IMG/VR virus record: IMGVR_UViG_3300020048_000052
Location: 1-64,000 of that record
Strand: one strand, 5' to 3'
Length of the DNA stretch: 64,000 nt
Source of the DNA: a virus
The stretch's first letter is position 1; each line of letters starts with the position of its first letter. The notes under the pieces were generated by a model that saw only the letters and a list, made by a program, of their open reading frames with translations, searched no databases and was not told the origin of the DNA. Of the stretch, positions 1 through 24,263 are shown one piece after another. The translations under genes and the position numbers were made by a program.

Positions 1-463
1 AGAACTTAAAATCCTCTTCATATCTATCATTATCGCCATGCTTGCCTTTTCTATTCATGCTCAAATCTGCCGGTATATCGATAAGAATTTCCACGCCTGG
101 CTTTATTAAACAGCTCTGTAACATCTGAACGAAAATTTTATTAAGACCTTTTGATATAGCATAAACTTCTTGACTTAAAATATATCTGTCCAAAACTAAA
201 AAGTCAACACCATCATGATTTAATTGCTTAAACCATTGTTGTTGAGCCTGTTTGTCTGCCGCCATAATAAATTCAATTGTTTGGTCGTCAACATCATATT
301 TCTTGTATAACCATTCCTGTATGAGCTTGCCAGTTGGTGTATCATACCTATGAAATTCAGATTTGACTACATTCTTACCAGCTTTTCTAAGCTTTTCTAC
401 TAAAACATTTGTCTGAGTAGCTTTACCACATTTGTCAATTCCCTCGAATGCAATAATTTCCAT
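1..463 (-). CDS. tmk: Thymidylate (dTMP) kinase, runs off window start (not in ORF track)
   Basis: Manual translation from ATG at 463: MEIIAFEGIDKCGKATQ (P-loop) ... LVLDRYILSQ (DR motif) ... DRYEED. Confidence 0.85.
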   Translation of the reverse strand, partial: MEIIAFEGIDKCGKATQTNVLVEKLRKAGKNVVKSEFHRYDTPTGKLIQEWLYKKYDVDDQTIEFIMAADKQAQQQWFKQLNHDGVDFLVLDRYILSQEVYAISKGLNKIFVQMLQSCLIKPGVEILIDIPADLSMNRKGKHGDNDRYEEDFKF

Positions 464-7365: not shown

Positions 7366-8547
7366 TTAATCTTCGTCATCGTCATCATCTTTATCAGATT
7401 CAGACATTTTAATATTTCCTTCAAGAATCATTTGGTATGCCTTGTCCTTGATTTTTTCCAAAATCTTCGGATTTTCTCTAAGGAACATCCTTACCTTTCT
7501 TTCACCAACGAGATTCGATGTAAAAAATTCGCTTTCATACGAAGTAGTAGTTGCTTTTGAAATAATGCCCTGCATCATTGCTTCTTCCAAAGTCGCCCTT
7601 ACATCGTCAAATCCTAGCGGACATTCGCCAATACCATTCGAAGTATAGAACGAACCTTCTTGCATTGGATAACCAAGCTTATTCTTTTCAAGTTTAAATC
7701 TATGGCTCCTACCTGCAATGACTTCATCTGAACCAACTTTTTCTTTAATCTCACCGGAACGATTAACACGAATCCTAATTGATGCGTAGAACTGTAATGC
7801 TTCACCACCAAAAGACTTCCATTTTGGTTCCCATGGTTTTGCACCAACATTGACACGTTCTTGATTTATGAATATAACGGCAACATCAGTACCTCCAACT
7901 AAAGCATTCAGTGTTTGCAACCAGTCTGACATAAGTCTAGCAGTCAAACCATAATTAGCATCGCCTACCTTTGCTCCTTTGGCAAGCTTTGCTGCTGGAA
8001 CTGCAGAAGCAACTGAGTCAAATAGAATATACAGAAGCACATGTGCTGGAATCAAACCTTTTTGCTTCTTTTCATTAAAGTTAATAATCATTTCGTTTAT
8101 TTCTTGAGCACTGTCTTCCAAAGTCATAATTGACTTACCATCTTTACCTTGCTTTCTATAAAGACAATTTTCAAGATTTAAACCAAGTGCCTCAATCCAT
8201 TTCTTATCATTTGCTGCTCTTTCATGGTCCCACATTGCTGTAAGATGTCCAGCTCTTTGAGCTGAAGCAAGAATTTCAATTCCGAGCGCTGTTTTGCCGC
8301 CTCCGTTAGGGCCATGTAATTCGTATATACCGCCGGTAGGATAGCCACCGAAAATAGAAGCTCTGTTATAAGACAGCAGTCTTGCAGGTACAAATTTCAA
8401 TTCTTCTTTTTCATCAAAAGTCATACCGCCTTTAATGTCTCCTGCAATCATTTTAAGCATGTCTAATTGCTCATCATTATTTTTACTTGGAACTGCCTTT
8501 TTAACTGGTGCTTTCTGTTGTATCTTTTTCTTAATAGGGGGTGCCAT
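7366..8547 (-). CDS. recA: RecA/UvsX-family recombinase
   Basis: ELHGPNGGGKT Walker A, FDSVAS, IFINQER, GGEALQFYASIRI, EKNK. Confidence 0.95.
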   Translation of the reverse strand: MAPPIKKKIQQKAPVKKAVPSKNNDEQLDMLKMIAGDIKGGMTFDEKEELKFVPARLLSYNRASIFGGYPTGGIYELHGPNGGGKTALGIEILASAQRAGHLTAMWDHERAANDKKWIEALGLNLENCLYRKQGKDGKSIMTLEDSAQEINEMIINFNEKKQKGLIPAHVLLYILFDSVASAVPAAKLAKGAKVGDANYGLTARLMSDWLQTLNALVGGTDVAVIFINQERVNVGAKPWEPKWKSFGGEALQFYASIRIRVNRSGEIKEKVGSDEVIAGRSHRFKLEKNKLGYPMQEGSFYTSNGIGECPLGFDDVRATLEEAMMQGIISKATTTSYESEFFTSNLVGERKVRMFLRENPKILEKIKDKAYQMILEGNIKMSESDKDDDDDED

Positions 8548-11233: not shown

Positions 11234-11935
11234 TTAAGCATATGAAAGGTCATCAAAGACAACCGGGATTTGGACTTTCATTTCGTCCAACAAAGGTTTA
11301 GCTACTTGCACCATCTGTGGATGAGGTTTTCCAGTAGTACCTAATGCGCGAAGCCTAAAGAAATGCCTCCACTCTCTTAAGTCCATTGTAACAACGATAT
11401 CAGACTTGACAGAATGTAATAGCACCGAACGTGCCAATTGTGCAGGACAACCAGAATTTACAAGCGATATGTAGTGCCTTTCAGAGTCTTCGATAGCACC
11501 TAACCATTCAGAAATCCAGTAATTAACAAGTTCTGCAGTTACAAGAATCTGTTCATTATTAACTGGATGCTTATAGGTCTTACCAACTTCTGCTTCCATA
11601 ATTTCACGAATATCAATTACGGTAATTTCTGAGCCGCTTTTTTCTTTACCATAATTGCAATACCTTGTAGATTCTTGTGCATATGAAGCAATACGGTGCC
11701 GAACAATTTCATGTGTAACTCCTCTATCTACAGTAAAAGTTACAGTTACAAAATGATGTTCAATCATTGCCTCGTGGCCGCTTTTAATTAAAGAAGCAAC
11801 GAACTTTTTTGCCGACTCATCAGTTATTTTATCCTCAGATTTATAGCAAGTTCTACCTGCTTTTTCGATTTTTCTAAGGATAGCTAAACCATCAATGCCT
11901 TCTTCTATTGCGAAGCCAGGTTTAATAATCTGCAT
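11234..11935 (-). CDS. thyX: Flavin-dependent thymidylate synthase (canonical)
   Basis: AGRTCYKS, GHEAMIEH, THEIVRHRIASYAQESTRY, ARSVL, REWRHF, HPQM. Confidence 0.95.
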   Translation of the reverse strand: MQIIKPGFAIEEGIDGLAILRKIEKAGRTCYKSEDKITDESAKKFVASLIKSGHEAMIEHHFVTVTFTVDRGVTHEIVRHRIASYAQESTRYCNYGKEKSGSEITVIDIREIMEAEVGKTYKHPVNNEQILVTAELVNYWISEWLGAIEDSERHYISLVNSGCPAQLARSVLLHSVKSDIVVTMDLREWRHFFRLRALGTTGKPHPQMVQVAKPLLDEMKVQIPVVFDDLSYA

Positions 11936-12003: not shown

Positions 12004-15000
12004 TTATATCAAATCGTCCATCAAAATAACCTTTTTTCTTTCATCGTCCTCATCTATATAAAAACAAGGTTCATCATTTTTACTCTTACCAGGTTTAACT
12101 TTAATCGCAACTATATTTCCTTCTTTAAGCAAATCTTTATATGGAGTATACATCTCTGGCCATACAGTGATACTTGCCTTTGTTTCATCCTTGCCTTGAA
12201 TATCTACAAAACACATTGTACCTTTAGAAATTTTATATGGATAAGCTTTAGTAACTATGCCATAAAGTGTTCCTCGTTTCCATTTCTTACCTTTGGCAAG
12301 TTCGCTAACTTCTTTAATACCTTTTTTCTGGATAACATCGCCATATTTATCTAAAGGGTTAGCACTAAAATAAAACCCAAACAAATCTTTTTCCAAAGCC
12401 ATTTTTTCATCAAAAGTCAAATCCTCTTGTCCCATTTCTTCTTCAACTTTTGCCAATATTTTTGAAAAATTCTTTTTACCGCCATTATTCCACCTTGTAT
12501 ATGCTTCCAATAACGTTTTCCTATGCTGATATAGAGAATCGAAAGACCCTGTCTGGATTAAAGCCTCCACAACCCTCTTATTAACTAACCTCCACTGCAT
12601 GTCAGCTCCAAAGAATGACTCTAGCGAGGTGTATGGTTGGTGTGCGACAATTTCAGGAACTGCAGCCTCTCCAACACCTTTAATAAACGTTAAAGAAGGA
12701 ATAATCGTTTTATCATCTTTCGGTACCCAATCGATTCCGGATATGGAGATGTCGGGCGTACCAATCTCTAATTTCATTTCTGAAATTGCCATTTTAACGT
12801 ATTTTTCTATTTTGTTTTCACCAGTTTTATGCCCTGCTTTACCTTTCTTTTCCTCATTTTTTGTCCTGCTTAGGAATGCAGCTGCATAGTCTGCTGGATA
12901 GTAATGTTTCAAGAACATATTTTGCATAGCTATTATAGCATAACTACAACTGTGAGATTTATTAAAAGAATAATCAGCTGCGGATGCCATAGCATCAACA
13001 AGCTTTTGTAGTTTTTCATATGCCAATCCAGTTTTTTGATGAGCACCTTCTTTAAAATGTTCAATCATATCATAGAATTTTTTAAGATTTTCAGGAGATG
13101 CAGTAGACGCTTTGTTTATATACTTTATTGTTTTTCTTGATTTATCAGCTTCAACCATTGTAAAACCGCCAACTCTATGCATTAAAGCCATTTGCTGTTC
13201 TTGATAAACCAAAACATTATATGTCGGCCCTAACACTGCCTCAATCTCTGGATGCATATAGTCAATATCATCTGAATGCCTATTTTCGATAATCATATCA
13301 ACACCGCCAGCTCTTAATGTACCGGGGCGATATGCAGCATTAACAATAATTAAATCTTCAAATCGTTGCGGCTGAATGTCTTTTATAAACTTTGTAATAC
13401 CTGATGATTCGAACTGAAATATTCCAGCTGTATGACCTTGCCTAAATCGTTCTAACAGTTTGTCGTCTTCAAGGTCTATTGCATCAATGTCAATATTTAT
13501 TCCTTTTCTTCTTTTAACAGATTGTAATGCTCGATTAAGAATAGTACAGTTATTTAATCCCAAAATATCAAACTTAAGTAACCCTATATCTGATATTTCA
13601 CGAATATCTCCACCTTCTTGTAAGCCTGTAACGATTTGTCCTGATGCTCTATTAATAGGTGCTAATTCTTCCATTTTTCCAGGAGTTACAACAACGCCTG
13701 AAGCATGCATTGAATAGTTCCTTACTTTACCTTCATAGAACTTACAAGCCTCAAAAAATTCTGTATTATTTTCTACAAACTCTTTAATATCTGGTGCTGG
13801 AGTTTCGCGAATTTCAACTTCTTCGCCTTTTCGCATTCGCTTAATACAAGATACACCCATTATTCTATCCAAATTTTGCTGAATAGTCTGGTCATCATTA
13901 CACAATTTTTTGAATTTATCTATAATTCCCCACGGTAAGCCAAATACCTTAGATAATTCTCCAATTACACTTTTACAACCCCAAGTACCAAACGACATTA
14001 TATGAGCAACTTTTTCAGGACCATTTTTCTTTATTAACAGCTCCTCAATTTCATATCTTCTTTCGCTGTCAAAGTCAAGGTCAATATCTGGCGGGTCGGC
14101 ACGTTCTTCGTTCAAAAACCTTTCAAAGAATAATCCATATCTTATTGGGTCAACCTTTGTTATTTCTAACAACCATGATATAAGAGCACCTGCAGCACTA
14201 CCTCTACCTGGACCTTTGAATAAGTCAGTTTCAACGCAATAGTCTGTAAATTCTGAAACAATTAAGAAGTAATCTGCATATCCTTTTCCGACTATTACTG
14301 GAAATTCCTTATTAAAACGGTCTTTATAATCTTGTTCAGTAAATCCCGGTGCAGGAAGTAATCCTTGCCGTTTTCTTTTGTTATAACCTCTAATACATTT
14401 CCTTTTTAATTCTGCATTAGCGTCAAAGTTTGGTTCCATACTAAACCTTGGGAATTTAAGAACGCCAGTCTCCATTTCGAAATCAGTTCTATCATAAATT
14501 TCCATTGTCTTATGTAAACCTGAAATAATATCTTTTCTGTCAATTCCATAATCCCATTTCATTGCAGAATGTATTATTTCATTAGAATCTTTTAGATATA
14601 ATTCTCTAGTACTATATCTAAATTTTGAAGGTTCTGCAATAGAACCGCCGTAATACATATCCTTAAAATAATCATGATACTGCACGTGTTCTTTTCTTGC
14701 ATAATGTGCATCAAGACCAACAATCCAAGGTATTCCTAATTCCTTTGCAAATTCAAGAATTTTATTGGTGCAATATCTCTGTATTTCAAGTTCGTTAAAA
14801 TGGAGTTCCACATAAAACCTATCACCAAAAGCATCTCTATAATCACTAAGAAGCTGTTTAGCGGCTTTATCCTGACCACACCTTATATAATAATTAAACT
14901 TCGATGCCAAGCAAGCAGACGTTGCAATTTGATGCTTAGAAGCTTCGTTCAATATATATTCGTGAGTTAATCTGGGGCGTTTATAAAACCCGTCCCTAAA

Positions 15001-15729
15001 TCCTTTTGCATTAGTCATTAGCAATTCATGATACGCTTCCTTTGTTGGAGAAAGCAGGACTAAATGGCCATAATCGTCATCCAAATAACCACTATCTATA
15101 GCCTCATCATCTTTTTTCCTTTTTTGCCTTTCAAGTGAAGCTTCAATTTTCAATTCGATATTGTCATCAGTATAAATCTCATTACCAAGAATTGGTTTGA
15201 TTGAATAATCTGGACGGTCTGAATCTTTAAAAGCCTTACAAGCTTTATAAAATTTCAAAGCACTTGACATGTTTCCATGCTCTGTTACTGTTGCACCTGG
15301 GAGACCTAATTCAGCAACTCTATTAATATATTCATCAATAGACATTACAGAATCTTTTGTTGAATAATCTGTATGATTATGTACCGGAATAAATGGTATT
15401 GTGTCGATAGTAGGCATAGGGACTTTTCTAGCACTAATCATACCAGAATATTTTTTGTCCATAATAGGTATAATCTTTTCGACTGCTTTTTTAGCTTTTT
15501 CGACCTGTTTGTCAATATCTGATGTCTTCTTAACCTTTTTAACAACTTTCTTAACTGGAGGTTCTGGCTGTTTTACAACCTTTTTAATCTTTTTTACTGA
15601 CAATTTATTCACCTCTTTAATGCAGGCCCTGTCGCATTCCATGCAGTCAAGATATACGACAGGGCCATTTATGATTGGGCAAAACCTACTCATTAACTTT
15701 AAATACAAGCTTATGCATACTATGCCCAT
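12004..15729 (-). CDS. dnaE: DNA polymerase III alpha subunit (family C); true start probably about 15693 (ATG) or 15603 (TTG)
   Basis: PHP motifs HNHTDYS/TEHG/DAHY, GPGRGSAAG, PPDIDLDFD, HASG, KFDILG, YSFNKSH and C-terminal OB fold. Confidence 0.95.
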   Translation of the reverse strand: MGIVCISLYLKLMSRFCPIINGPVVYLDCMECDRACIKEVNKLSVKKIKKVVKQPEPPVKKVVKKVKKTSDIDKQVEKAKKAVEKIIPIMDKKYSGMISARKVPMPTIDTIPFIPVHNHTDYSTKDSVMSIDEYINRVAELGLPGATVTEHGNMSSALKFYKACKAFKDSDRPDYSIKPILGNEIYTDDNIELKIEASLERQKRKKDDEAIDSGYLDDDYGHLVLLSPTKEAYHELLMTNAKGFRDGFYKRPRLTHEYILNEASKHQIATSACLASKFNYYIRCGQDKAAKQLLSDYRDAFGDRFYVELHFNELEIQRYCTNKILEFAKELGIPWIVGLDAHYARKEHVQYHDYFKDMYYGGSIAEPSKFRYSTRELYLKDSNEIIHSAMKWDYGIDRKDIISGLHKTMEIYDRTDFEMETGVLKFPRFSMEPNFDANAELKRKCIRGYNKRKRQGLLPAPGFTEQDYKDRFNKEFPVIVGKGYADYFLIVSEFTDYCVETDLFKGPGRGSAAGALISWLLEITKVDPIRYGLFFERFLNEERADPPDIDLDFDSERRYEIEELLIKKNGPEKVAHIMSFGTWGCKSVIGELSKVFGLPWGIIDKFKKLCNDDQTIQQNLDRIMGVSCIKRMRKGEEVEIRETPAPDIKEFVENNTEFFEACKFYEGKVRNYSMHASGVVVTPGKMEELAPINRASGQIVTGLQEGGDIREISDIGLLKFDILGLNNCTILNRALQSVKRRKGINIDIDAIDLEDDKLLERFRQGHTAGIFQFESSGITKFIKDIQPQRFEDLIIVNAAYRPGTLRAGGVDMIIENRHSDDIDYMHPEIEAVLGPTYNVLVYQEQQMALMHRVGGFTMVEADKSRKTIKYINKASTASPENLKKFYDMIEHFKEGAHQKTGLAYEKLQKLVDAMASAADYSFNKSHSCSYAIIAMQNMFLKHYYPADYAAAFLSRTKNEEKKGKAGHKTGENKIEKYVKMAISEMKLEIGTPDISISGIDWVPKDDKTIIPSLTFIKGVGEAAVPEIVAHQPYTSLESFFGADMQWRLVNKRVVEALIQTGSFDSLYQHRKTLLEAYTRWNNGGKKNFSKILAKVEEEMGQEDLTFDEKMALEKDLFGFYFSANPLDKYGDVIQKKGIKEVSELAKGKKWKRGTLYGIVTKAYPYKISKGTMCFVDIQGKDETKASITVWPEMYTPYKDLLKEGNIVAIKVKPGKSKNDEPCFYIDEDDERKKVILMDDLI

Positions 15730-16219
15730 TTACAAAAATCATTGCAACATCTATATTTAATTTGTCTTGTAAAGCTCTTGTTATTTTATGCACTAAGTAC
15801 ATATCAGAAAATAATTTCTGTTCAACTTCAGAGCTTCTTAGGTGTACATAGCAGTAAATTTTTGAATCCCGAACGAGATAGTGAATTAAACTGATACAAC
15901 AGTCATCCGACCATAAAACTCTTCTGGAATGCAAATCTTCATCAAATAATGAAAACTTTGATAAAAGTTCATTTTCGATTTTACTGTATTCTTCCTTTTC
16001 CAGTTCCTCGATGCTTTTCAAGTCTATCTTGTGACTATTATAATATTCAACCATATTTTTCTTAATATCAGCAATATCAATTTGACTGTTATAAGAAATA
16101 TTAAAACTATGATTGAGGACTTCAATAGTACCTTGTCCGTCAACTAAGACAGGCTTTCCTTTTTCAACTACAAACAATTGAAGATTTTCAATCACTTGCC
16201 TTAAACCTAATCCATGCAT
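15686..16219 (-). CDS. Minimal thymidylate-synthase (ThyA)-fold protein, candidate pyrimidine-modifying enzyme
   Basis: SRR...CCISLIHYLVRD...VHLRSSE...LFSD aligns with the TS core RR...PC...Q...RSxD...N, with Asp at the specificity Asn position. Confidence 0.6.
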   Translation of the reverse strand: MHGLGLRQVIENLQLFVVEKGKPVLVDGQGTIEVLNHSFNISYNSQIDIADIKKNMVEYYNSHKIDLKSIEELEKEEYSKIENELLSKFSLFDEDLHSRRVLWSDDCCISLIHYLVRDSKIYCYVHLRSSEVEQKLFSDMYLVHKITRALQDKLNIDVAMIFVNGHSMHKLVFKVNE

Positions 16220-16237
16220 ATTAGTCTCTCCTTGTTA

Positions 16238-16272
16238 TAAAATGGGCCAATGGCGCAAAGCTCATTGGCCCA
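16238..16272 (-). terminator. Hairpin / weak intrinsic terminator
   Basis: TGGGCCAATG/CATTGGCCCA stem. Confidence 0.65.
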
Positions 16273-16284
16273 CCTTATTAAAAT

Positions 16285-17340
16285 TTAGTCTTCCATAAAC
16301 CTTGCTTTTTCAATATCGGGAAGGCTATCAAAAGTTTCGAAATTAGGCCATTCATCGGGCCTTGTAATATGAATACCGAGCTGTTCCTCAAGGTCCTTAT
16401 AGTTTGTGCATGTTTCATTAAACTCCGCATAGTCATTGCTGTCGGGACATGAATTCCTTCCACACTCCTTAAACAAACAGCCAAACATTTCAGACAGTGT
16501 ATAAGATTTGTGGTACTGGCATTTGCCTGCCCAATCACAACCAGGTCTTAAAAATGAACCAAGCAACGGATATGCTTCCGACACAGCCCTAGCTGTTTGC
16601 CATGCAATAGCAACTGTATCTTCCATTTCGCAGAATTTCATTCTGGTACTGCACATATTCCTCAATGCCATAAAGTTAATCGAAAACGAAAAACCATAAA
16701 CTACATAAAGAGGTAGTACACAGCGAGCTGCCTGCCAAGAACCTTTACCAACGTCAACAATATCTGCATATGTCTGTTTAACATCGCACATAACACGCTT
16801 GATATTCCAAAAAATATTGCATTTGTCAATTGCTTTTTGCTGCTCTGCTGTAGGTGTTTTGATGATATTACTGCGCCATTCATCGAAAATTTGAATTTCA
16901 TCTTCTGTTGGCCAAAGTGCAGTTGGAATCCTTATTGAAGCATCTTTCCAATTGTTATCCCTCATACCTCTTGCAGAAAATACAACACCAAGTCTTGCTC
17001 TTGCAATCTGATCGAATGCCGCACGTGATGGCCCTTCTACTGCAAAAGCAAATTGAGGTACTTCCAATGCCAATGGTAACGCTTGGCCTCTTAAAGCTGC
17101 CTTAACAACTTCAAATCTGTTTTCAGGCGATGTCATTTCCCATTTATCTACCTCTTTACCCCAGCATGTAGTAGCCAGAATATACATTGGTTTATAAGGG
17201 TTTGCAATGACAGATTCGATAAGTTTTACCGAAATTCCTTCAACACCTTTTAAAAATTTTGTTTCAAGTTTTGGGTCTTGGTCTGGAAGTGTCCCCATAA
17301 CTCTCCTAAGTTCATTGATACGCGTAGTTTCGTTACTCAT
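16285..17340 (-). CDS. Divergent second ThyX-family flavoprotein
   Basis: LALEVPQFAFAVEGPSRAAFDQIARARLG (RHR changed to RAR), WQAARCVLP, Cys-rich C-terminus. Confidence 0.75.
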   Translation of the reverse strand: MSNETTRINELRRVMGTLPDQDPKLETKFLKGVEGISVKLIESVIANPYKPMYILATTCWGKEVDKWEMTSPENRFEVVKAALRGQALPLALEVPQFAFAVEGPSRAAFDQIARARLGVVFSARGMRDNNWKDASIRIPTALWPTEDEIQIFDEWRSNIIKTPTAEQQKAIDKCNIFWNIKRVMCDVKQTYADIVDVGKGSWQAARCVLPLYVVYGFSFSINFMALRNMCSTRMKFCEMEDTVAIAWQTARAVSEAYPLLGSFLRPGCDWAGKCQYHKSYTLSEMFGCLFKECGRNSCPDSNDYAEFNETCTNYKDLEEQLGIHITRPDEWPNFETFDSLPDIEKARFMED

Positions 17341-17369
17341 AATATCCTCCTTTATTGGTTTATAATATT

Positions 17370-17398
17370 ATTATATCACAAAAGAATCATTTATTAAC
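17370..17398 (-). promoter_or_regulatory. Conserved phage promoter GTTAAT-N14-TGATATAAT
   Basis: Exact consensus match. Confidence 0.8.
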
Positions 17399-17420
17399 AC
17401 ATTATAGACGGCAATTTTCT

Positions 17421-18554
17421 TTATATAAATACCTTTTTATTACGATTTTCATAGTATGCTTGGTTTATTGGCTGATATCTACTAAAGCAATTATCACATT
17501 TTCCGGAACAGAATGTTTTGTTGAAATTTCTTTTCCATATTTTTATAATGCTTTCAGAATTAACATTGCCAAGGCCTGTAAATGAAGTTTGTCTTTCCAT
17601 TAAGCAATCGCTGAACTTTTGCAATTCCCAAAATGTTCTTTCTCCATATTCATCTGTATCATCAGCAATCATCTCGCACGGAAATACATTTCCATCAGAA
17701 CCTATAGCTAAATGAATTTTATTTATGATGCATGGATAATTACCGAATGTCACTTTTCTAACATCTTCATCTTGTGAATATGCCTGTATAAGGCTGTCAT
17801 AAAGAAACTGCAAATTGTTTTCGGGTATTCTTTTGTGATAGTTCTTACTTATCATATCGTTTAGTTGTTCTAAAATTATTTCAATTTCATCTCTACCAAT
17901 ACAGAGGTTTCCATCACCGTGCATAGGATAAATCATAAGTCTATAGATATTATTTTCTGCAGAAAACTTAATAATGTCGCGAATGTCCATGCAATTACTT
18001 TTCTGTATTGTGAAATTTATTCCAACCTCTTTTTGATGCTCTTGAGCCTTTCTAACGTTAGGCAAAATCGTTCCATATAAATTATCGAGGCCCCTAATAA
18101 AAGTGTATCTAGCAGGGTCTAGAGAATCAATAGAAAAGCGTATCCACCTTAAGCTTGCCAATTTCGAAAAATCGAAATTCTTTTTAAAATTACCTGTGCA
18201 AATAATTCCAAGGTCAAAATTTCTTTTCATATCCAGAATTTTATCAAAATCTGGATGGAGAATTGGGTCACCGCCAGTTAAGCAGATTGACTCTACTTCA
18301 TTTTCATTACAGTCATCCCATATTTCTTTTAAAATAGAAATGTCCAAATTATTGCGATTTTTAGTTTTCCAATGACCGCACATATTACACCGGTTGACGC
18401 AGTAGTCAGTAACTAAAATATGCAACGATATCGGGCCTTTCAAAGCTTCTTTTTCAATAAGCTTTACATACGGCAATATTTTCTTAACTGTCTTTTCTCT
18501 AACTACATCCATGTTAAAGCACCTCCTGATTATATTTATAAGGGCAACCATCAT
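17421..18554 (-). CDS. Radical SAM enzyme with SPASM/twitch domain (likely start about 18512)
   Basis: CVNRCNMC, LTGGDP, RFSIDS, C...GNVFPCE...LGNV...CDNC. Confidence 0.9.
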   Translation of the reverse strand: MMVALINIIRRCFNMDVVREKTVKKILPYVKLIEKEALKGPISLHILVTDYCVNRCNMCGHWKTKNRNNLDISILKEIWDDCNENEVESICLTGGDPILHPDFDKILDMKRNFDLGIICTGNFKKNFDFSKLASLRWIRFSIDSLDPARYTFIRGLDNLYGTILPNVRKAQEHQKEVGINFTIQKSNCMDIRDIIKFSAENNIYRLMIYPMHGDGNLCIGRDEIEIILEQLNDMISKNYHKRIPENNLQFLYDSLIQAYSQDEDVRKVTFGNYPCIINKIHLAIGSDGNVFPCEMIADDTDEYGERTFWELQKFSDCLMERQTSFTGLGNVNSESIIKIWKRNFNKTFCSGKCDNCFSRYQPINQAYYENRNKKVFI

Positions 18555-19032
18555 CAGAAATTTCCAAATGCATAACTGGAACGTTATTTCTTATCATAGC
18601 TTCCTTTAACTTGCATTCTGCAATTTGTTCTTTGCCTGCCTTACATTTCATACAGACAAGCAAAGCATATTCACAAATTTCATAAAAATCTTCTGTAACA
18701 ACAACCATATTTGATTCTATTTTTTCCATTTCTTTAAATTCCCTAATGGCTTCAGTCTTTTGTTTTACTATTATTTCAAGTTTTTTCATTTCATTTATTA
18801 CATCATGCTTATATTTGTCATCAAGATTTTGAAAGTACCAATCTATAACTTTTAGGCAGAATGACCTTGACATTTTCATAAACTTAATTACAGACTTTGG
18901 TCTTTTAAGTTCTTCAAACTTGATAATCAAATTATTCATGAAGTCAACGAGAGTCCCTAAAATAATAGTATTATATCTGTCTTCCTTATTTAGATATCGT
19001 TTCATCTTTATCAACTCCTGAAAATAAATCAT
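18514..19032 (-). CDS. DUF5651-like protein
   Basis: MKRYLNKEDR N-terminus and C-x2-C...C...VP...CPY C-terminus. Confidence 0.6.
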   Translation of the reverse strand: MIYFQELIKMKRYLNKEDRYNTIILGTLVDFMNNLIIKFEELKRPKSVIKFMKMSRSFCLKVIDWYFQNLDDKYKHDVINEMKKLEIIVKQKTEAIREFKEMEKIESNMVVVTEDFYEICEYALLVCMKCKAGKEQIAECKLKEAMIRNNVPVMHLEISDDGCPYKYNQEVL

Positions 19033-20023
19033 GTGCCTGTTGCATTTTCTCTTTAATATTTATTCCAAACGGGCAATTAGAAGAACATTGGCTGTCACAG
19101 TCTTTACAGTCATTTACATTATATTTATATTTTTCATAACTGTCTTTCATGTCAAGTCCAAACTTTTCTTGATATATTGCGCATTTTAATATACCGGGCT
19201 GCGACATTGCCCAACCATATTTCTGGCATGGCCTGCATTCGTTGCAAAACCTACAAAAGTCAGAACCAAAAAAATCAACTATCTGATTTTCTAAAATCAT
19301 AATTTCTTTTTCAGATAGTTTTTCAGCAAAGCAATATGCATTTGCTATTTGTTGTAATTGTTCTATAGAACGATAAGCCGGAATGATTAAGTCACCATTG
19401 TATGCAGAAAAATTCATAACTTTTTGCAATGTCACAGTGCGTTTAAATTCATTATCAGAAGGCCCTCCAAGCAATATTCCGCTTGCGAAGTTTTTCATAG
19501 TGACTACACTAATTCCTTTTTCTTTTGCACATTGAATAATAGATTCAAACTCCCTATGCATTAAAGAAAATGGTACCATTATTATATCTACAAATCCACT
19601 TTCTATTGCAGTCATTGCAGCAGTAACTGAATGCCCAGAAACACCTACACTTTTTATAAACCCTTTGTCCTTAATATTTTTCATCTCATGTAAAACGTTC
19701 ATAGATTTTTCCAAGGTTTCGTCATCATCTATAAACGAATGGCCAAAATAAAAGTCTACATAGTCAGTATTGAGTTTACCTAAACTATTTACCAAAGACA
19801 AATGAAGTTCTTTGACTGTAGCTGCCTTTGTCTTAGTAGACAATAAATAGGACTCCCTCTGATAGTCTCTAAGCGCATGCCCAAAAAATTCTTCACTAGC
19901 ACCATATGCTGGAGAAGTATCAAAAATCCTAATATCTAGCATATCATATGCATATCTGATTATTCTTTCAGGATGGTCAACAGGATTTACAAAGTAACCA
20001 CCCATTCCCAATTTTGCTTTCAT
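18986..20023 (-). CDS. Aldo/keto reductase with C-terminal 4Fe-4S domain
   Basis: FDTSPAYGASE, LSTK, SLGKLNTDYVD, VGVSGH, CRFCNECRPC...CKDC...CPFGI. Confidence 0.88.
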   Translation of the reverse strand: MKAKLGMGGYFVNPVDHPERIIRYAYDMLDIRIFDTSPAYGASEEFFGHALRDYQRESYLLSTKTKAATVKELHLSLVNSLGKLNTDYVDFYFGHSFIDDDETLEKSMNVLHEMKNIKDKGFIKSVGVSGHSVTAAMTAIESGFVDIIMVPFSLMHREFESIIQCAKEKGISVVTMKNFASGILLGGPSDNEFKRTVTLQKVMNFSAYNGDLIIPAYRSIEQLQQIANAYCFAEKLSEKEIMILENQIVDFFGSDFCRFCNECRPCQKYGWAMSQPGILKCAIYQEKFGLDMKDSYEKYKYNVNDCKDCDSQCSSNCPFGINIKEKMQQAHDLFSGVDKDETISK

Positions 20024-20036
20024 ATTAAATCTCTCC

Positions 20037-20483
20037 TTATAATAAGCGTTCAGCTGTTAACAGAATTTGTTCCATACACTCATCTATACAATATTTAGAA
20101 GTGTTTATATTTAATACTTTTAAAGAAGTATTTTCTAAATACTGCCTATATTGTTGCTTTACATAATCAATCTGTTGTAAATCAATATCTTTTTCATCAT
20201 GTTCTATAAACCTTTTCTTAATATCTTCAGTATCGGCAAAAACATGAACAAACATAACTGGAATAGGAGATTTTGTTAAAAAACTTTCCAAATTTCTAAA
20301 ACTTTCCAAACTTGGAGTTGAATTTTTATTATGAAGCCTCCCATAAACATACTGACATGGAGTAAACCTGTCCACGCAAATATGTTGGTTTGTTCTTTTT
20401 AAGATATTTTTCATAAGTGTACTTTTGCCAGTCTTATCGCAGCCGACGAAAAGCAAAATTGCCATTTTAAAAACCCCCTTCAC
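20037..20483 (-). CDS. Short dNMP-kinase-like P-loop protein (second nucleotide kinase)
   Basis: FVGCDKTGKST, VDRF, INTS. Confidence 0.8.
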   Translation of the reverse strand: MKGVFKMAILLFVGCDKTGKSTLMKNILKRTNQHICVDRFTPCQYVYGRLHNKNSTPSLESFRNLESFLTKSPIPVMFVHVFADTEDIKKRFIEHDEKDIDLQQIDYVKQQYRQYLENTSLKVLNINTSKYCIDECMEQILLTAERLL

Positions 20484-20499
20484 CTTAAATATACACCTT

Positions 20500-20542
20500 C
20501 TAGAACCCTGCTAGATTAACAAACACAGGGTGCCTAATATGT
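20500..20542 (+). repeat. 43-bp dispersed repeat, copy 1
   Basis: 41/43 identical to the reverse complement of 51194-51236. Confidence 0.92.
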
Positions 20543-21499
20543 TTATATGTTCCACTTTTCGACTATATCTAGAAGGTCTATAAACGGTATAATCAAATTA
20601 CTTAATTCAGATGGAATACGATTAGTATTGTCATAACAATCTTTAAGAAAAACCACATAACCTTCTTTTGCAACATCGATCGCAATCTCAATACAATCTT
20701 CTACCATAAAAAGCATTTTAGGAAATTCTTTTATGATTTTAAGATGTTTCTCTTTATCCCAAATAATAGCGTCGAAATATATATTGTTTTCCTTAAGGAA
20801 CTTTAATGTGTCCGGATAAATAGTGTAATATTCCTTATAAGGGCGTGCTGTAAGAATTACCACTTTATATCCTTTTTGATGAAGTAAATTAGTAAATTCT
20901 GAAGCATGTTTGCAAGCAGGCATAGAAGATTTCCATCCTGACTGGCGATAGTCAGACTTAAGTCTTTCATAATAAATCGTACCAAGCCCTGCCTTTGCTT
21001 CTTCTAATGAATTAAATTTCTGTCCAACTCTCGCCCGAACAAACTCCAAGAACCAAAATGGATATTCTCCTAAGACGCCATCAATGTCAACTGCTGCAAT
21101 CTTTTCGTCTTTGTCAATAAGTTTTAAATCATGTTCTTGTGTCCATCTCTGGTCAACAACCCAGCTTTTTCTAAGATATTCCTCATAATAATCTTCAAAG
21201 GTCATACCCCAGATTTGTGCAAGTCCTACTGAGAATTTATTGACATCGATTATTTCTTCATATAAATTCGAAGGAATAAATTCTGTTTCAATATTGCGAT
21301 GCTCTTTCCAATTCGGAATTTCATCCAGCACTTCCATTGATTCTTTTACTATAGAAAGCAATTGGTTTTTAGACCAAAATACTTTTTCTTCCATAGTCAT
21401 GTCTTCCATTTCTTTACCTATCTTTGCCCTGTAAAACTTCCTGTTAAATTCTAACTGAACGTCCCACAAATGCTTAAGCTTGTCTTTATCGTTTTGCAT
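20543..21499 (-). CDS. Fusion of all-alpha NTP pyrophosphatase (dimeric dUTPase/MazG-like) and HAD 5'-nucleotidase
   Basis: N-terminal KESMEVLDEIPNWK...EEIID; C-terminal VDIDGV, ILTARP, VEDC. Confidence 0.82.
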   Translation of the reverse strand: MQNDKDKLKHLWDVQLEFNRKFYRAKIGKEMEDMTMEEKVFWSKNQLLSIVKESMEVLDEIPNWKEHRNIETEFIPSNLYEEIIDVNKFSVGLAQIWGMTFEDYYEEYLRKSWVVDQRWTQEHDLKLIDKDEKIAAVDIDGVLGEYPFWFLEFVRARVGQKFNSLEEAKAGLGTIYYERLKSDYRQSGWKSSMPACKHASEFTNLLHQKGYKVVILTARPYKEYYTIYPDTLKFLKENNIYFDAIIWDKEKHLKIIKEFPKMLFMVEDCIEIAIDVAKEGYVVFLKDCYDNTNRIPSELSNLIIPFIDLLDIVEKWNI

Positions 21500-22403
21500 T
21501 AATCAAACCCCCATCTCTACAAATTTTGACAATATCATCTGTTTTTATATCATGGTCCCAACTTGCATATCTTCCAAGAAACAAAATATCATTTATTTCT
21601 TGAACCTTACCGCTCTGAATCTGACCAACAGGAATAACGTGATGTTCGCGAGAATACATTGACCAAGTTTGAATTATAGACTTATAACTCTTATTTGTCG
21701 TATATTCTATTGAAGCCTTTCCATTTCCTGTTTTAGATATCCTATGATATCCGTGAGCTGAGTCTGGGAAATATATATAATCAAACTCCCCAAAGTCAAT
21801 TTGGTCTTCATTCATTACTACAAAAACCTTTTGAACATACTTAAGTTCTTGTTCTGGTTGCAAGTTTGAAATTTTAAAGAATACCGGTGCAGGAATTGTC
21901 GATACCAAACTATCATATCTTAAAATTTCAGAACCATCAGATTCTACTTTTAAGATATGATTTGTAGTATCGATTAAACTAACTTTACCGTTTATAGGTT
22001 TTTCTATACTATTTACTAAAATACTAACAACTTTGTCCCAATCAATATCGAAATATTCAATAAAACTCTTACCGTCTGACATTATTGAACTTGGTACAAT
22101 AGCTGCCGTATGTAAACATCTTGACTTAATATAATATTTTTTTCTTAAGTCTTCAGATATTGAATTTACAAGCTTTCCTTCTACTTTATAACCTATTTTA
22201 GCGATTTTGATAGGGCATTCTTTTATGCCTAAATCATTAAGAAATTCTTTAGAATATTGATTTACTTCTAATATTCTTGGGCCAACATTTTTAGAAACCA
22301 TTTGACCGCCAATATCTTGAGAAATAATCTTATATTCTTTATTATAATAAGCCGCAATTAAACCGGCAATCCCTCCACCAATAATATACTTTGACAACCT
22401 CAA
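21486..22403 (-). CDS. FAD-dependent oxidoreductase/mutase resembling UDP-galactopyranose mutase
   Basis: IIGGGIAG, GGQ, GPRIL, LVSTIP, YIYFPD, YHRIS, FLGRYASW...TDD. Confidence 0.7.
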   Translation of the reverse strand: MRLSKYIIGGGIAGLIAAYYNKEYKIISQDIGGQMVSKNVGPRILEVNQYSKEFLNDLGIKECPIKIAKIGYKVEGKLVNSISEDLRKKYYIKSRCLHTAAIVPSSIMSDGKSFIEYFDIDWDKVVSILVNSIEKPINGKVSLIDTTNHILKVESDGSEILRYDSLVSTIPAPVFFKISNLQPEQELKYVQKVFVVMNEDQIDFGEFDYIYFPDSAHGYHRISKTGNGKASIEYTTNKSYKSIIQTWSMYSREHHVIPVGQIQSGKVQEINDILFLGRYASWDHDIKTDDIVKICRDGGLINAKR

Positions 22404-22427
22404 AACCTCCTACTGCTTTATAATATA

Positions 22428-22456
22428 ATTATATCACATTTAATACACTTATTAAC
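22428..22456 (-). promoter_or_regulatory. Conserved phage promoter heading the modification cluster
   Basis: GTTAAT-N14-TGATATAAT exact. Confidence 0.8.
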
Positions 22457-22568: not shown

Positions 22569-23393
22569 TTACTTTCCAAAATTCTTTAAAGCTTCCTTGA
22601 TAAGCTTTAAAGCTACGGCAGTATCGCCGCCATCATAAATTGCCTTTGTTGTTCCTAAGTGCTTTTGTTTTGCTTCCTCTTCTGTGTATTTTGTGATACC
22701 GTCAACGTCGGAAGAAACTTCAGCATTAAGCTCTACTACAAGAGTTTTGCCGGTGGAAACAGCCTTGAGCAACCTTTTGCCGTCCTTAACATATGTTACG
22801 CCGGTTTTTCTTTCACGCTTTTCAAAATCTTCACCAAGAAGTTCGTCAATTTCTGCAGTGAAAGCTGCAAATTCCTCATTCTTCTTTTGAGTATCTACAG
22901 TTGTGCCTTCGGGACGACCTTTCTTGCCTGACTCTTTCTTTTCTTCTTTACCTTTTGCTTTGCCTTTGTCGACAGCCTTAGTGCTTTTCTTATCAGCTAC
23001 CTTTTTAGCAACGTCGCTTGCTGCTTTTTCAATTTCTTTGTCAGGGTCGGCTTCGCCGTCACCGTCGCCAGCTTCTGCATCTGCATCTTCCCCAGCTTCA
23101 GTATCTTCGCCAGCTTCTGCATCCGCATCTTCCCCAGCTTCTGCATCTTCATCACCAGTGTCTTCGCCGCCAGCTTCTGCATCTTCATCAGCCTCTTCAA
23201 AAGACTCGCCGCAGTAGGGGCATGTTTTTACATCAGGAATGTCTTTTGCACATGAAGGGCATTCATAACCAAGTTCCATTTCAGAAAGCTTTTCGTCGAT
23301 AAGTCCCTCAAGTTCTTTTGCTTTTTTTGAGGATGTTTCAATCCCCAAGTCCTTGCAGCCGCTTTGCAAGGAAGAAACAGTAATTTTACCCAT
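22569..23393 (-). CDS. Hypothetical protein: double Zn ribbon, acidic EDADAEAG repeats, Lys-rich linker, C-terminal globular domain
   Basis: CPSC...CPYC; low-complexity acidic then basic segments; own promoter and terminator. Confidence 0.8.
   Translation of the reverse strand: MGKITVSSLQSGCKDLGIETSSKKAKELEGLIDEKLSEMELGYECPSCAKDIPDVKTCPYCGESFEEADEDAEAGGEDTGDEDAEAGEDADAEAGEDTEAGEDADAEAGDGDGEADPDKEIEKAASDVAKKVADKKSTKAVDKGKAKGKEEKKESGKKGRPEGTTVDTQKKNEEFAAFTAEIDELLGEDFEKRERKTGVTYVKDGKRLLKAVSTGKTLVVELNAEVSSDVDGITKYTEEEAKQKHLGTTKAIYDGGDTAVALKLIKEALKNFGK
23066..23190. repeat. Imperfect tandem coding repeats (CCAGCTTCTGCATC units) encoding E-D-A-(D-A)-E-A-G
   Basis: Five or more units visible. Confidence 0.85.
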
Positions 23394-23448
23394 AATTGCA
23401 TCTCCTTCTTTGATTTTAATTTATTCAGTTTAAATAACTGTTAATTAT

Positions 23449-23477
23449 AATATATCATCTTTTTTTCTAAAATAAAC
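23449..23477 (-). promoter_or_regulatory. Variant promoter GTTTAT-N14-TGATATATT
   Basis: Same spacing as consensus, 2 mismatches. Confidence 0.6.
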
Positions 23478-23495
23478 GACTTTTAGTAAAAAAGT

Positions 23496-24263
23496 TTATA
23501 ATAAATGGATTTTGTTATAAATGTCTTTTAAAACTGGATATATTTTATTTTTTATAGTTCTAGAAACCACCACAGATGCAGATTGTTCAGACGCATAACG
23601 TTTATCATTGAATAGTTTATTAGCAATATCAATCTGTTTCATATTATCTCTAAACAGCATTATAAAAATTTCTTTAGTTTGTTTGTCAAACTTATCAACA
23701 ATACCATTCAAGCAATGATTAAACGTTACTTCATCTTCAAAACTTCCATTTTGTGAAATTTCAAATTCCATTCTATCAGAAAGTGTTTCATCATCCTCTT
23801 CACCGGAAGATGGTGAAAATATACTTACCGACATTACATTAGATTTTCTTTCTTCACTGTATTCTCTTCTTAATTCGTTTTGAAGATAGGCTCCTAAATT
23901 GAACTTTATATATTTTGAAATGCTAGTCGAAGGTTCGTGATAATCTCCGTGTTTTGTTATAACATGAAGCTTATAGACAGATTCTGTCTTAGCCTGTATT
24001 CCGCATATAGGGCATCTAAATCTATATTTATGAATACATTGCCAAACGACTAAATAAGCGATATTGATAAAATCATCTAATGCCATTAAGGTTGAAGGAT
24101 AATTACGCATTTTTTGTTGACATACAGAGTATATGTAATTCCTAACCTCACTGCTCTTTATAATATCCTCAAATATCGCTTCGTCTCCAGTTTCTTTATA
24201 AAGCAAAAATTTAGCCTCATCAAATTTCCTTTCCTCCATTTTGTAAACCCCCATTTTAACCAT
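23496..24263 (-). CDS. Sigma70-family-like RNA polymerase sigma factor with an inserted C2H2 zinc finger
   Basis: Region 2-like DDFINIAYLVVWQCIHKY...SISKYIKFNLGAYLQNELRR; ETLSD; region 4-like KEIFIML...MKQIDIANKL...VSR; CPICG-x-H-x4-H insert. Confidence 0.7.
   Translation of the reverse strand: MVKMGVYKMEERKFDEAKFLLYKETGDEAIFEDIIKSSEVRNYIYSVCQQKMRNYPSTLMALDDFINIAYLVVWQCIHKYRFRCPICGIQAKTESVYKLHVITKHGDYHEPSTSISKYIKFNLGAYLQNELRREYSEERKSNVMSVSIFSPSSGEEDDETLSDRMEFEISQNGSFEDEVTFNHCLNGIVDKFDKQTKEIFIMLFRDNMKQIDIANKLFNDKRYASEQSASVVVSRTIKNKIYPVLKDIYNKIHLL

Follow-up and report, generated by a model that had tools for sequence, protein, structure and literature searches.

A candidate pyrimidine deoxynucleotide modification module with a ThyX paralog and a UGM-like flavoprotein in the replication block of an uncultivated phage

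Hypermodifications of phage DNA defeat restriction enzymes and CRISPR, and have been a source of new enzymology and tools. A deoxynucleoside triphosphate (dNTP) pyrophosphatase, a deoxynucleoside monophosphate (dNMP) 5'-nucleotidase and a dedicated kinase together are the classic means of removing one canonical pyrimidine, and it is with a dTTPase-dUTPase, a dTMP nucleotidase and a dedicated kinase that the hydroxymethyluracil phages SPO1 and SP8 and the uracil phage PBS2 exclude thymine; Bacillus phage SP-15 carries 5-dihydroxypentyluracil. The dCTP-replacement set of phage T4 comprises the dCTPase/dUTPase gp56, the dCMP hydroxymethylase gp42, the kinase gp1, the deaminase cd and the thymidylate synthase td. 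In the clusters for glycosylated 5-hydroxycytosine, a thymidylate synthase (TS) homolog is accompanied by a YorR/Tmk-like kinase, a HAD phosphatase, a dCTPase and sugar enzymes, and in phage RL38J1 also by a UDP-galactopyranose mutase (UGM) (PMC13326640). Post-replicative thymidine hypermodification clusters act instead on 5-hydroxymethyluracil within DNA via a DNA kinase and aGPT-Pplase (PMC5889632, PMC8989533). Here we compare with these systems a cluster of eight contiguous genes, at 15686-22456 of the first 64 kb (64,000 nucleotides, hereafter the window) of the IMG/VR virus record IMGVR_UViG_3300020048_000052, which is 111,051 bp long and rated complete by CheckV.

The core of this module consists of a ThyX paralog, a small UGM-like flavoprotein (mini-UGM), an NTP-pyrophosphatase/HAD fusion, a YorR/Tmk-like kinase and a small TS-fold protein (mini TS). 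The module is very probably concerned with pyrimidine deoxynucleotides, and by analogy with T4 and RB69 we consider it somewhat better than an even chance that it makes a non-canonical pyrimidine deoxynucleotide, most likely one derived from cytosine or uracil, so that the dNTP pool would be rewritten before replication.

Recurrence of the module and its core enzymes

Scanning IMG/VR with a profile of the ThyX paralog returned 64 viral loci, among them 34 with at least 7 kb on both sides (full-flank loci); merging paralogs above 90% identity gave a non-redundant set of 28. The mini-UGM and the HAD domain are each present in 32 of the 34 full-flank loci (26 of the 28 merged), the pyrophosphatase domain in 29 (23), the mini TS in 28 (22) and the kinase in 25 (20), along with a short-chain dehydrogenase/reductase (SDR) resembling RmlD in 25 (20) and the DNA polymerase DnaE in 24 (18). 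The usual order is flavoprotein, pyrophosphatase/HAD, kinase, SDR, mini TS, DnaE where present, and ThyX paralog, and the mini TS is always accompanied by the mini-UGM. Dozens of independent contigs share this grouping of genes, so that chance is a most unlikely cause of the clustering. The initial annotation of the window, made from its sequence, had named such co-occurrence in advance as a test of its proposal, and it was found: the core recurs in 64 viral loci. The eight open reading frames (ORFs) lie on the minus strand at the positions given there, and every gene identity it assigned was borne out by Pfam, profile comparisons, AlphaFold2 (AF2) models and Foldseek.

The mini TS (177 amino acids; 15686..16219, minus strand) bears a catalytic cysteine, Cys108, an SRR motif and the pair Arg128-Ser129. 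Pfam returned no match at an E value of 0.01, PF00303 included. The AF2 model (pLDDT 97) has the TS core, and its top Foldseek matches are all of the TS fold, from AfhB and ThyA proteins, led by 9iqu, 'phage HY126 dCMP hydroxylase-AfhB'; the title of a further match, 9iqc, names a flavin-dependent monooxygenase with dCMP and FAD. A sequence profile of the family, compared with the PDB, likewise finds 9iqu and 9iqc first (E 9e-14), then the T4 dCMP hydroxymethylase (7e-13) and then ThyA entries. The TS fold predicted for this minimal protein is confirmed. It is small for its fold, with 177 residues against 246 in T4 gp42 and 264 in Escherichia coli ThyA, or about 90 residues below ThyA.

Which base such an enzyme handles can be approached from a few positions. 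In TS homologs, Asp at the position of E. coli N177 confers a preference for dCMP and an acidic residue at L143 goes with hydroxymethylation, while Asn at D169 marks the flavin-dependent 5-hydroxy-dCMP synthases (PMC13326640). The window protein has Asp139 at the N177 position, Glu131 at D169 and Asp105 at L143; it thus follows the dCMP-specific rule (Asp at N177, acidic residue at L143) and departs from the 5-hydroxy-dCMP synthase rule (Asn at D169), and its pattern Asp105/Glu131/Asp139 looks more hydroxymethylase-like than hydroxylase-like. Asp at the N177 position is present in 36 of 37 module-linked mini TS sequences, and the equivalents of E. coli Cys146, Arg166 and Ser167 (Cys108 and Arg128-Ser129 here), together with Arg99, the arginine contributed across the dimer, are likewise found in 36 of the 37. 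By contrast, the D169 position varies, being Glu in the window, Asp in the related locus L001 and Asn in 16 of the 37, all from other clades. Asn or His at this position occurs together with an SDR in 20 of 24 cases, and Asp or Glu with no SDR or with an aldo-keto reductase (AKR) and a radical SAM enzyme in 11 of 13, a correlation that is confounded by phylogeny. The split suggests that there are two chemical versions of the module, one of which may depend on oxygen.

Two short TS-fold genes occur in the modules of L002 (9333-9989 and 13097-13687) and L026 (9240-9986 and 13025-13672); in each pair, a protein of 218-248 amino acids that matches Pfam Thymidylat_synt accompanies a mini TS of about 200 amino acids, and both have Asp at the N177 position. 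Six full-flank loci have no mini TS match; a search of them with the family profile was negative throughout, and two candidate ORFs in these loci were rejected, one being a family-4 uracil-DNA glycosylase (UDG) and the other a kinase.

The ThyX paralog (351 amino acids; 16285..17340, minus strand) is the best-conserved part of the module, with 45-80% identity over more than 200 protein clusters. It shares with the flavin-dependent thymidylate synthase ThyX (PF02511, TIGR02170) the Thy1 fold (Pfam 51.8 bits, cut-off 24.8) and the arginines that bind dUMP, namely those of RHR, SxRY, QAARxVLP and the last motif, whereas its score against TIGR02170 (26.9 bits) is far below the cut-off of 87.9. The difference lies in the catalytic motifs. 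Where a canonical ThyX has RHR...SxRY, the paralog has RAR...GxRD: the His of the first motif is replaced by Ala, and the Ser and Tyr of the second by Gly and Asp. These substitutions are invariant in 40 family members; the loss of the RHR motif noted in the initial annotation is thus a property of the whole family. A further difference is a C-terminal extension of about 90 residues with five invariant cysteines, for which the ESM Atlas yielded no relatives outside the family itself.

In a distant clade of the module (L021 9986-11431, L028 9974-11492, L047 9992-12122, L057 and L067), the ThyX paralog is about 480 amino acids long or is called as two adjacent ORFs of about 270 and 235 amino acids; in L047, an ORF of 198 amino acids lies between the halves. 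The gene could be truly split in these loci, or could contain an intein-like element or an inserted domain. Genes for GroES and GroEL lie directly downstream of the ThyX paralog in this clade (L028 11495-13430 and about 24 other loci).

The fusion protein (318 amino acids; 20543-21499, minus strand) combines two hydrolases. Its N-terminal domain (21125..21499, minus strand) is a putative all-alpha NTP-pyrophosphatase, probably of the dimeric dUTPase/MazG kind, in which the acidic metal-binding motifs are intact. It matches the PHROG NTP-PPase family (1.5e-5), and its profile matches the dUTPases of Leishmania and Campylobacter (E 1.8e-4 to 0.01); stand-alone equivalents in L002 and L003 match Pfam dUTPase_2 at 1e-16. 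The C-terminal domain (20543..21124, minus strand) is a HAD phosphatase, probably of the 5'-deoxynucleotidase (NT5C) type, with the DxD, T/S-ARP, Lys and Asp motifs, which are invariant in the family. The window protein itself has no Pfam match; stand-alone homologs in L002 and L004 match Pfam NT5C above its cut-off, and actinophage relatives are annotated as nucleotidase or phosphatase. The kinase (148 amino acids; 20037..20483, minus strand) is a short P-loop nucleotide kinase of the Tmk/YorR type with weak matches to Tmk, and its closest relative in a cultured phage is YorR of SPbeta. In L022, a gene of the UDG superfamily (7728-8306; Pfam UDG 7e-13, family-4-like motifs by eye) lies between the fusion and the kinase, which is odd for a phage that possibly handles uracil-derived nucleotides. 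In L028 (4224-4577) and about 23 other loci, the same interval holds a conserved protein of about 120 amino acids with no Pfam match; it belongs to the SDR-type module and is absent from the window.

The mini-UGM (305 amino acids; 21486..22403, minus strand) has the GxGxxG motif of an FAD protein and no Pfam match, Pfam GLF included; its assignment comes from a family profile and an AF2 model (pLDDT 94). The profile, built from 36 homologs, matches eukaryotic UGM at E 4.5e-9 over the substrate-side domain, and the model superposes on the UGM of Aspergillus fumigatus (3ukh) with a VIA Z of 23.6, over 300 of its 305 residues. The two proteins have the FAD Rossmann fold and a beta-sheet domain on the substrate side in common, and the family-invariant Tyr211, Arg221 and Arg278 align with Tyr317, Arg327 and Arg447 of the fungal enzyme, which we take to be active-site residues of UGM. 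On the other hand, the mini-UGM is about 200 residues shorter than the matched eukaryotic enzymes (305 against about 510) and lacks their uridine-binding helical domain; the alignment runs over UGM chain residues 5-477, within which long segments have no counterpart. Because protoporphyrinogen oxidases are nearly as close, as the next-best structures (Z about 20), any mutase chemistry of this UGM-like flavoenzyme is putative. In the ESM Atlas, the family is confined to viral clusters and has a fold likeness to protoporphyrinogen oxidases and amine oxidases. When the mini-UGM and the mini TS were co-folded with FAD, the complex score was 0.01 and the mark 0.32, a result that speaks neither way.

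Two versions of the reductase slot

Between the kinase and the mini TS, the module carries one of two kinds of reductase. In L028 (4984-6048), and with equivalents in 25 of the 34 full-flank loci, an extended SDR lies there, whose best named family is dTDP-4-dehydrorhamnose reductase (RmlD). The window has an AKR instead (345 amino acids; 18986..20023, minus strand; Pfam E value 2.6e-27, 96.1 bits against a cut-off of 24). The C-terminal part of the AKR carries two ferredoxin-like cysteine clusters, CX2CX2CX2C and CX2CX3CX3CP; that it is an Fe-S part is read from these motifs and from a sub-threshold match to Fer4_18. The SDR and the AKR are never found together.

The AKR is paired with a radical SAM/SPASM enzyme (17421..18512, minus strand). 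The longest ORF spans 17421-18554, and the start is probably Met15 (18512), because the homologs align from there. The protein has the CX3CX2C motif at Cys38, Cys42 and Cys45, and both Radical_SAM (43.6 bits) and SPASM (24.4 bits) are over their cut-offs. None of the named radical SAM subfamilies reaches its cut-off, the nearest being cofactor and peptide maturases that score far below. The family is sharply bounded, with E values falling from 1e-91 directly to unrelated proteins, and its close relatives occur only in contigs that also carry the module. Locus scans with single proteins returned no match for the AKR and, for the radical SAM enzyme, only the contig of L001; profile scans added L070-L075. 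The radical SAM profile led to five further contigs, in each of which the AKR is directly upstream of the radical SAM enzyme, and where the contigs are long enough the kinase precedes this pair and the ThyX paralog and mini TS follow it. The order flavoprotein, pyrophosphatase/HAD, kinase, AKR, radical SAM, ThyX paralog, mini TS is found in six other contigs with 54-76% identity of the radical SAM enzyme, and the AKR and radical SAM pair occurs in just one of the 34 full-flank loci. Taken together, the AKR may be read as replacing the SDR as carbonyl reductase, with the radical SAM enzyme as an added partner, in a clade-specific manner.

The eighth gene, for a Cys-rich DUF5651-like protein (172 amino acids; 18514..19032, minus strand; 27.4 bits, at the cut-off of 27), is an optional member of the module, being present in the window and L073 and absent from L001, L071, L072 and L074. 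The initial annotation took all eight genes for one pathway. Of these, the core genes travel together, whereas DUF5651 is optional and the AKR and radical SAM genes stand outside the core as a clade-specific replacement of the SDR.

Proposed pathway and alternative functions

Gene identities, folds, conserved residues and co-occurrence were computed, and from them we infer substrates, the order of steps and the product. In the proposed pathway, the dUTPase-type pyrophosphatase domain would convert dCTP and/or dUTP to the monophosphate, comparable to T4 gp56, and the fused NT5C-type phosphatase would drain the unwanted dNMP. The mini TS would then attack C6 of dCMP through its cysteine and install a substituent at C5, and the YorR/Tmk-like kinase would re-phosphorylate the modified dNMP for the adjacent DnaE. 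The ThyX paralog might make, or further convert, a second C5-modified pyrimidine nucleotide, while the UGM-like flavoprotein and the carbonyl reductase (the Fe-S AKR with its radical SAM partner here, the RmlD-like SDR elsewhere) might tailor this substituent or some sugar-like intermediate. With a canonical ThyX, Tmk and dCMP deaminase of its own, the phage does not need the module to supply dTTP in the ordinary way. The T4-type logic suggested in the initial annotation fits: the cytosine-type Asp of the TS-fold protein, the pyrophosphatase of the dUTPase/dCTPase kind and the kinase of the YorR type known from 5-hydroxycytosine clusters agree with it.

Several points weigh against this proposal. 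In 8 of 12 genomes checked, three complete ones among them, no other ThyX- or ThyA-like gene accompanies the ThyX paralog, a pattern that would fit an ordinary thymidylate synthase. The mini TS is short and has no Pfam match, and its cofactor could be folate or flavin. Some full-flank loci lack the mini TS (four) or both the mini TS and the flavoprotein (two), so the core chemistry is not fixed, and the co-occurrence counts, such as 32 of 34 for the flavoprotein, are inflated by relatedness among the contigs. For the flavoprotein, the AKR and the radical SAM enzyme, the roles proposed are guessed from the families to which they belong, and the phages of INPHARED include no member of the ThyX paralog family or of the flavoprotein family.

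The first of these points leads to the alternative that survives best, to which we assign a low but appreciable likelihood: the module would serve the ordinary supply of nucleotides, with a ThyX paralog that is a divergent but normal synthase and with canonical DNA. In that case the pyrophosphatase would act as a dUTPase, the kinase on dTMP and the HAD domain as a nucleotidase in salvage, and the flavoprotein and reductase would feed electrons to the ThyX paralog or recycle cofactors for it. The retained dUMP-binding arginines are in keeping with this, as are the solved structures nearest to the pyrophosphatase, which are dUTPases, and the genes for dCMP deaminase and a trimeric dUTPase that often lie nearby and would supply dUMP. 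However, a canonical enzyme stands alongside the paralog in the other 4 of the 12 genomes, the window genome included; a canonical ThyX is present in the window genome, L001 and genome G006, and a canonical Tmk in the window genome and L001. The altered catalytic residues do not vary within the family, which points to a changed reaction more than to drift, and this co-occurrence and invariant loss together argue against the paralog being an ordinary synthase. Ordinary supply would also leave without a role a cytosine-type TS-fold enzyme whose nearest relatives are a dCMP hydroxylase and a dCMP hydroxymethylase, and no known ThyX needs a UGM-like partner.

Slightly less likely again, in our judgment, is a nucleotide-sugar pathway, in which the UGM-like protein, the SDR or the AKR and radical SAM pair, the HAD phosphatase and the kinase would make an unusual activated sugar, to be added by an unrecognised transferase either to a hydroxylated cytosine, as in RB69, DLP3 and RL38J1, or to a target other than DNA. 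UGM is indeed the closest structure and profile match of the flavoprotein, the SDR has dTDP-4-dehydrorhamnose reductase as its best named family, and the published 5-hydroxycytosine clusters join a TS homolog, a Tmk-like kinase, a HAD phosphatase and sugar enzymes, with a UGM in RL38J1; the Asn signature in 16 of the 37 module-linked mini TS goes with the SDR. However, the flavoprotein is shorter by some 200 residues than eukaryotic UGMs, the HAD domain resembles deoxynucleotidases over sugar phosphatases, and the mini TS of the window clade has Glu or Asp rather than Asn at D169. Moreover, no GT1/GT2 glycosyltransferase (PF00535, PF00534) was found in the whole genome, the search being confined to these two families. 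The conserved neighbours identified by Pfam comprise the SDR, dUTPase, GroEL/GroES, a PD-(D/E)XK nuclease and a methyltransferase, with no glycosyl- or nucleotidyltransferase among them, and one conserved neighbour of 117 amino acids has no Pfam match. A model in which a sugar is placed on DNA is therefore without its last step, because neither a glycosyltransferase nor a nucleotidyltransferase was found in the scans made, and the sugar-bearing product suggested as possible in the initial annotation remains hypothetical.

It is improbable, finally, that the AKR, DUF5651 and radical SAM genes are an unrelated insertion (such as an auxiliary metabolic or maturase cassette) in a five-gene module. 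In favour of this are their absence from 33 of the 34 full-flank loci, the remote likeness of the radical SAM enzyme to cofactor and peptide maturases, and a DUF5651 gene that comes and goes. Against it, six contigs have the AKR and radical SAM pair in its place after the kinase and before the ThyX paralog, at identities down to 54%; the radical SAM family has no close relatives beyond module-bearing contigs; the AKR takes the slot of another, mutually exclusive carbonyl reductase; and a consensus scan found no terminator-like site on the coding strand within the cluster.

Within the preferred reading of a modified pyrimidine nucleotide, a more specific chemistry can be imagined. To our knowledge, ThyX and UGM are the only enzyme families that use flavin N5 as a covalent carrier, of a methylene group and of sugar C1, respectively. 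We regard it as a long shot that the ThyX paralog and the cut-down UGM, with a cofactor-less mini TS to activate the pyrimidine, join a sugar-derived or longer carbon unit to C5 of a pyrimidine nucleotide by a C-C bond. If so, the SDR or the AKR and radical SAM pair would trim the unit, and the product would be a kind of DNA base that has not been described and that would need no glycosyltransferase.

Genomic setting and comparison with known systems

The module lies in the replication block of the phage genome, in a window whose genes are nearly all on the minus strand. In the order of transcription, genes for DnaB, primase, a UvrD-like helicase, a sigma-like protein and a Zn-ribbon/acidic protein precede it, and genes for DnaE, canonical ThyX, RecA, SbcCD, RuvC, NusG and canonical Tmk follow. 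The gene for the DnaE-type DNA polymerase (12004..15693, minus strand) overlaps at its start with the end of the mini TS gene, as the initial annotation had it, by 44 nt from the first ATG or by 8 nt from Met13, the start that homologs favour; this suggests translational coupling. The parallel canonical set claimed there is also present. The canonical ThyX gene (11234..11935, minus strand) encodes an intact RHRIASYAQESTRY motif of the RHR...SxRY form, and tmk (2..463, minus strand; Pfam 1.5e-22) is truncated by the start of the record; a dCMP deaminase gene lies at the other end of the record, with those for a NUDIX protein, a ligase and a flap nuclease. A weak promoter-like site (TTAATA, 16 nt, TG-TATAAT; 22428..22455, minus strand) was found by consensus scan upstream of the first module gene, in promoter and terminator scans whose site counts were about equal to those in shuffled sequence. 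Directly upstream of the module, at 22569-24263, the sigma-like protein (255 amino acids) and the Zn-ribbon protein with acidic repeats (274 amino acids) form a pair that keeps the same position in L001, L070 and L072. The endolysin combines Amidase_3 and glucosaminidase domains. The host is probably an anaerobic Gram-positive bacterium, because NCBI labels the close homologs as metagenome-assembled genome sequences of Sedimentibacter and Thermosipho.

Among cultured phages (INPHARED, 50,697 records), blastn with the cluster and tblastn with the flavoprotein returned no match, and the tblastn matches of the ThyX paralog were limited to canonical ThyX proteins of PB1-like phages and a distant one in Gordonia; no Bacillus phage, the group to which SP-15 belongs, was among the matches of these searches. 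The Gordonia phage Ranch (L076, MN234207.1; 269-10819, gp69-gp84) is the nearest cultured analogue of the module, a remote one. It encodes a small flavoprotein with the GRYxxW tail seen in the module (gp69), a homolog of the HAD domain (gp70, E 1e-21), a methyltransferase (gp73), an SDR (gp75), DnaE (gp80), a MazG protein (gp81) and a ThyX-like protein of 351 amino acids with RQR for RHR and a Cys-bearing tail (gp84; hhalign probability 96.8%). The Gordonia phages Lambo and Xenia2 (Lambovirus) likewise have a remote analogue, and Ranch could serve as an experimental stand-in for the module. Some loci additionally encode a class I SAM-dependent methyltransferase (L021 4991-5737, L047 4374-5360, L076 2273-3001). 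The module is thus common in viral metagenomes, where the ThyX paralog forms more than 200 protein clusters, and absent from the INPHARED records searched; if a modified base is made, some fraction of environmental phage DNA would have a chemistry to which sequencing and restriction-based methods are blind.

No description of this combination of enzymes was found in the literature searched, in agreement with the initial annotation, which had not recognised it from any characterised pathway. The post-replicative thymidine clusters have in common with it a TS homolog, radical SAM and flavin-dependent tailoring (PMC5889632, PMC8989533), whereas the DNA kinase and aGPT-Pplase families were not detected here and the radical SAM enzyme of the module is of the SPASM type. 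Compared with the thymine-excluding phages SPO1, SP8 and PBS2, the two hydrolases of the module are fused. The window phage has also retained canonical ThyX and Tmk, and this speaks against a complete replacement of thymine.

T4 is a closer parallel. As there, the replication genes contain, or have near them, genes for a pyrophosphatase, for a dedicated kinase, for a TS-fold enzyme whose N177 position is Asp, and for dCMP deaminase and thymidylate synthase; in the PDB, the mini TS profile ranks gp42 second. The TS-fold protein of the module is smaller (177 against 246 residues), however, its kinase is of the Tmk/YorR rather than the gp1 type and its pyrophosphatase is fused to a HAD nucleotidase, and it adds the ThyX-fold, UGM-like, AKR and radical SAM proteins, while no glucosyltransferase was found.

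The glycosylated 5-hydroxycytosine clusters of RB69, DLP3, HY126 and RL38J1 contribute AfhB (9iqu, 9iqc), which is the best match of the mini TS in both sequence and structure, and 16 of the 37 module-linked mini TS share their RSQN...D signature. They differ in that the window mini TS has Glu at D169 where they have Asn, in that the flavoprotein here is a cut-down UGM, in that no glycosyltransferases, sugar kinase/nucleotidyltransferase or arabinose isomerase were found here, and in that they contain no counterpart of the ThyX paralog. An O2-dependent hydroxylase would, moreover, be odd in strict anaerobes such as those with which relatives of the phage were binned (Sedimentibacter and Thermosipho).

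What the window locus brings to this comparison is the AKR and radical SAM variant with its exchange for the SDR, a mini TS linked to AfhB, the split at residue 169 between the two versions and the UGM assignment of the flavoprotein. The overall logic would be that of T4 and of RB69, DLP3 and HY126: a canonical dNTP is cleared, the monophosphate is modified by a TS-fold enzyme, and the product is re-phosphorylated. The module sets itself apart by a ThyX-fold enzyme with rebuilt catalytic residues and a UGM-like flavoprotein, by TS-fold proteins that are the smallest seen so far and are related to the recently discovered flavin-dependent dCMP hydroxylase, and by a redox part that comes in two interchangeable forms, one with an SDR and the other with an Fe-S AKR and its radical SAM partner; these forms may reflect oxic and anoxic hosts.

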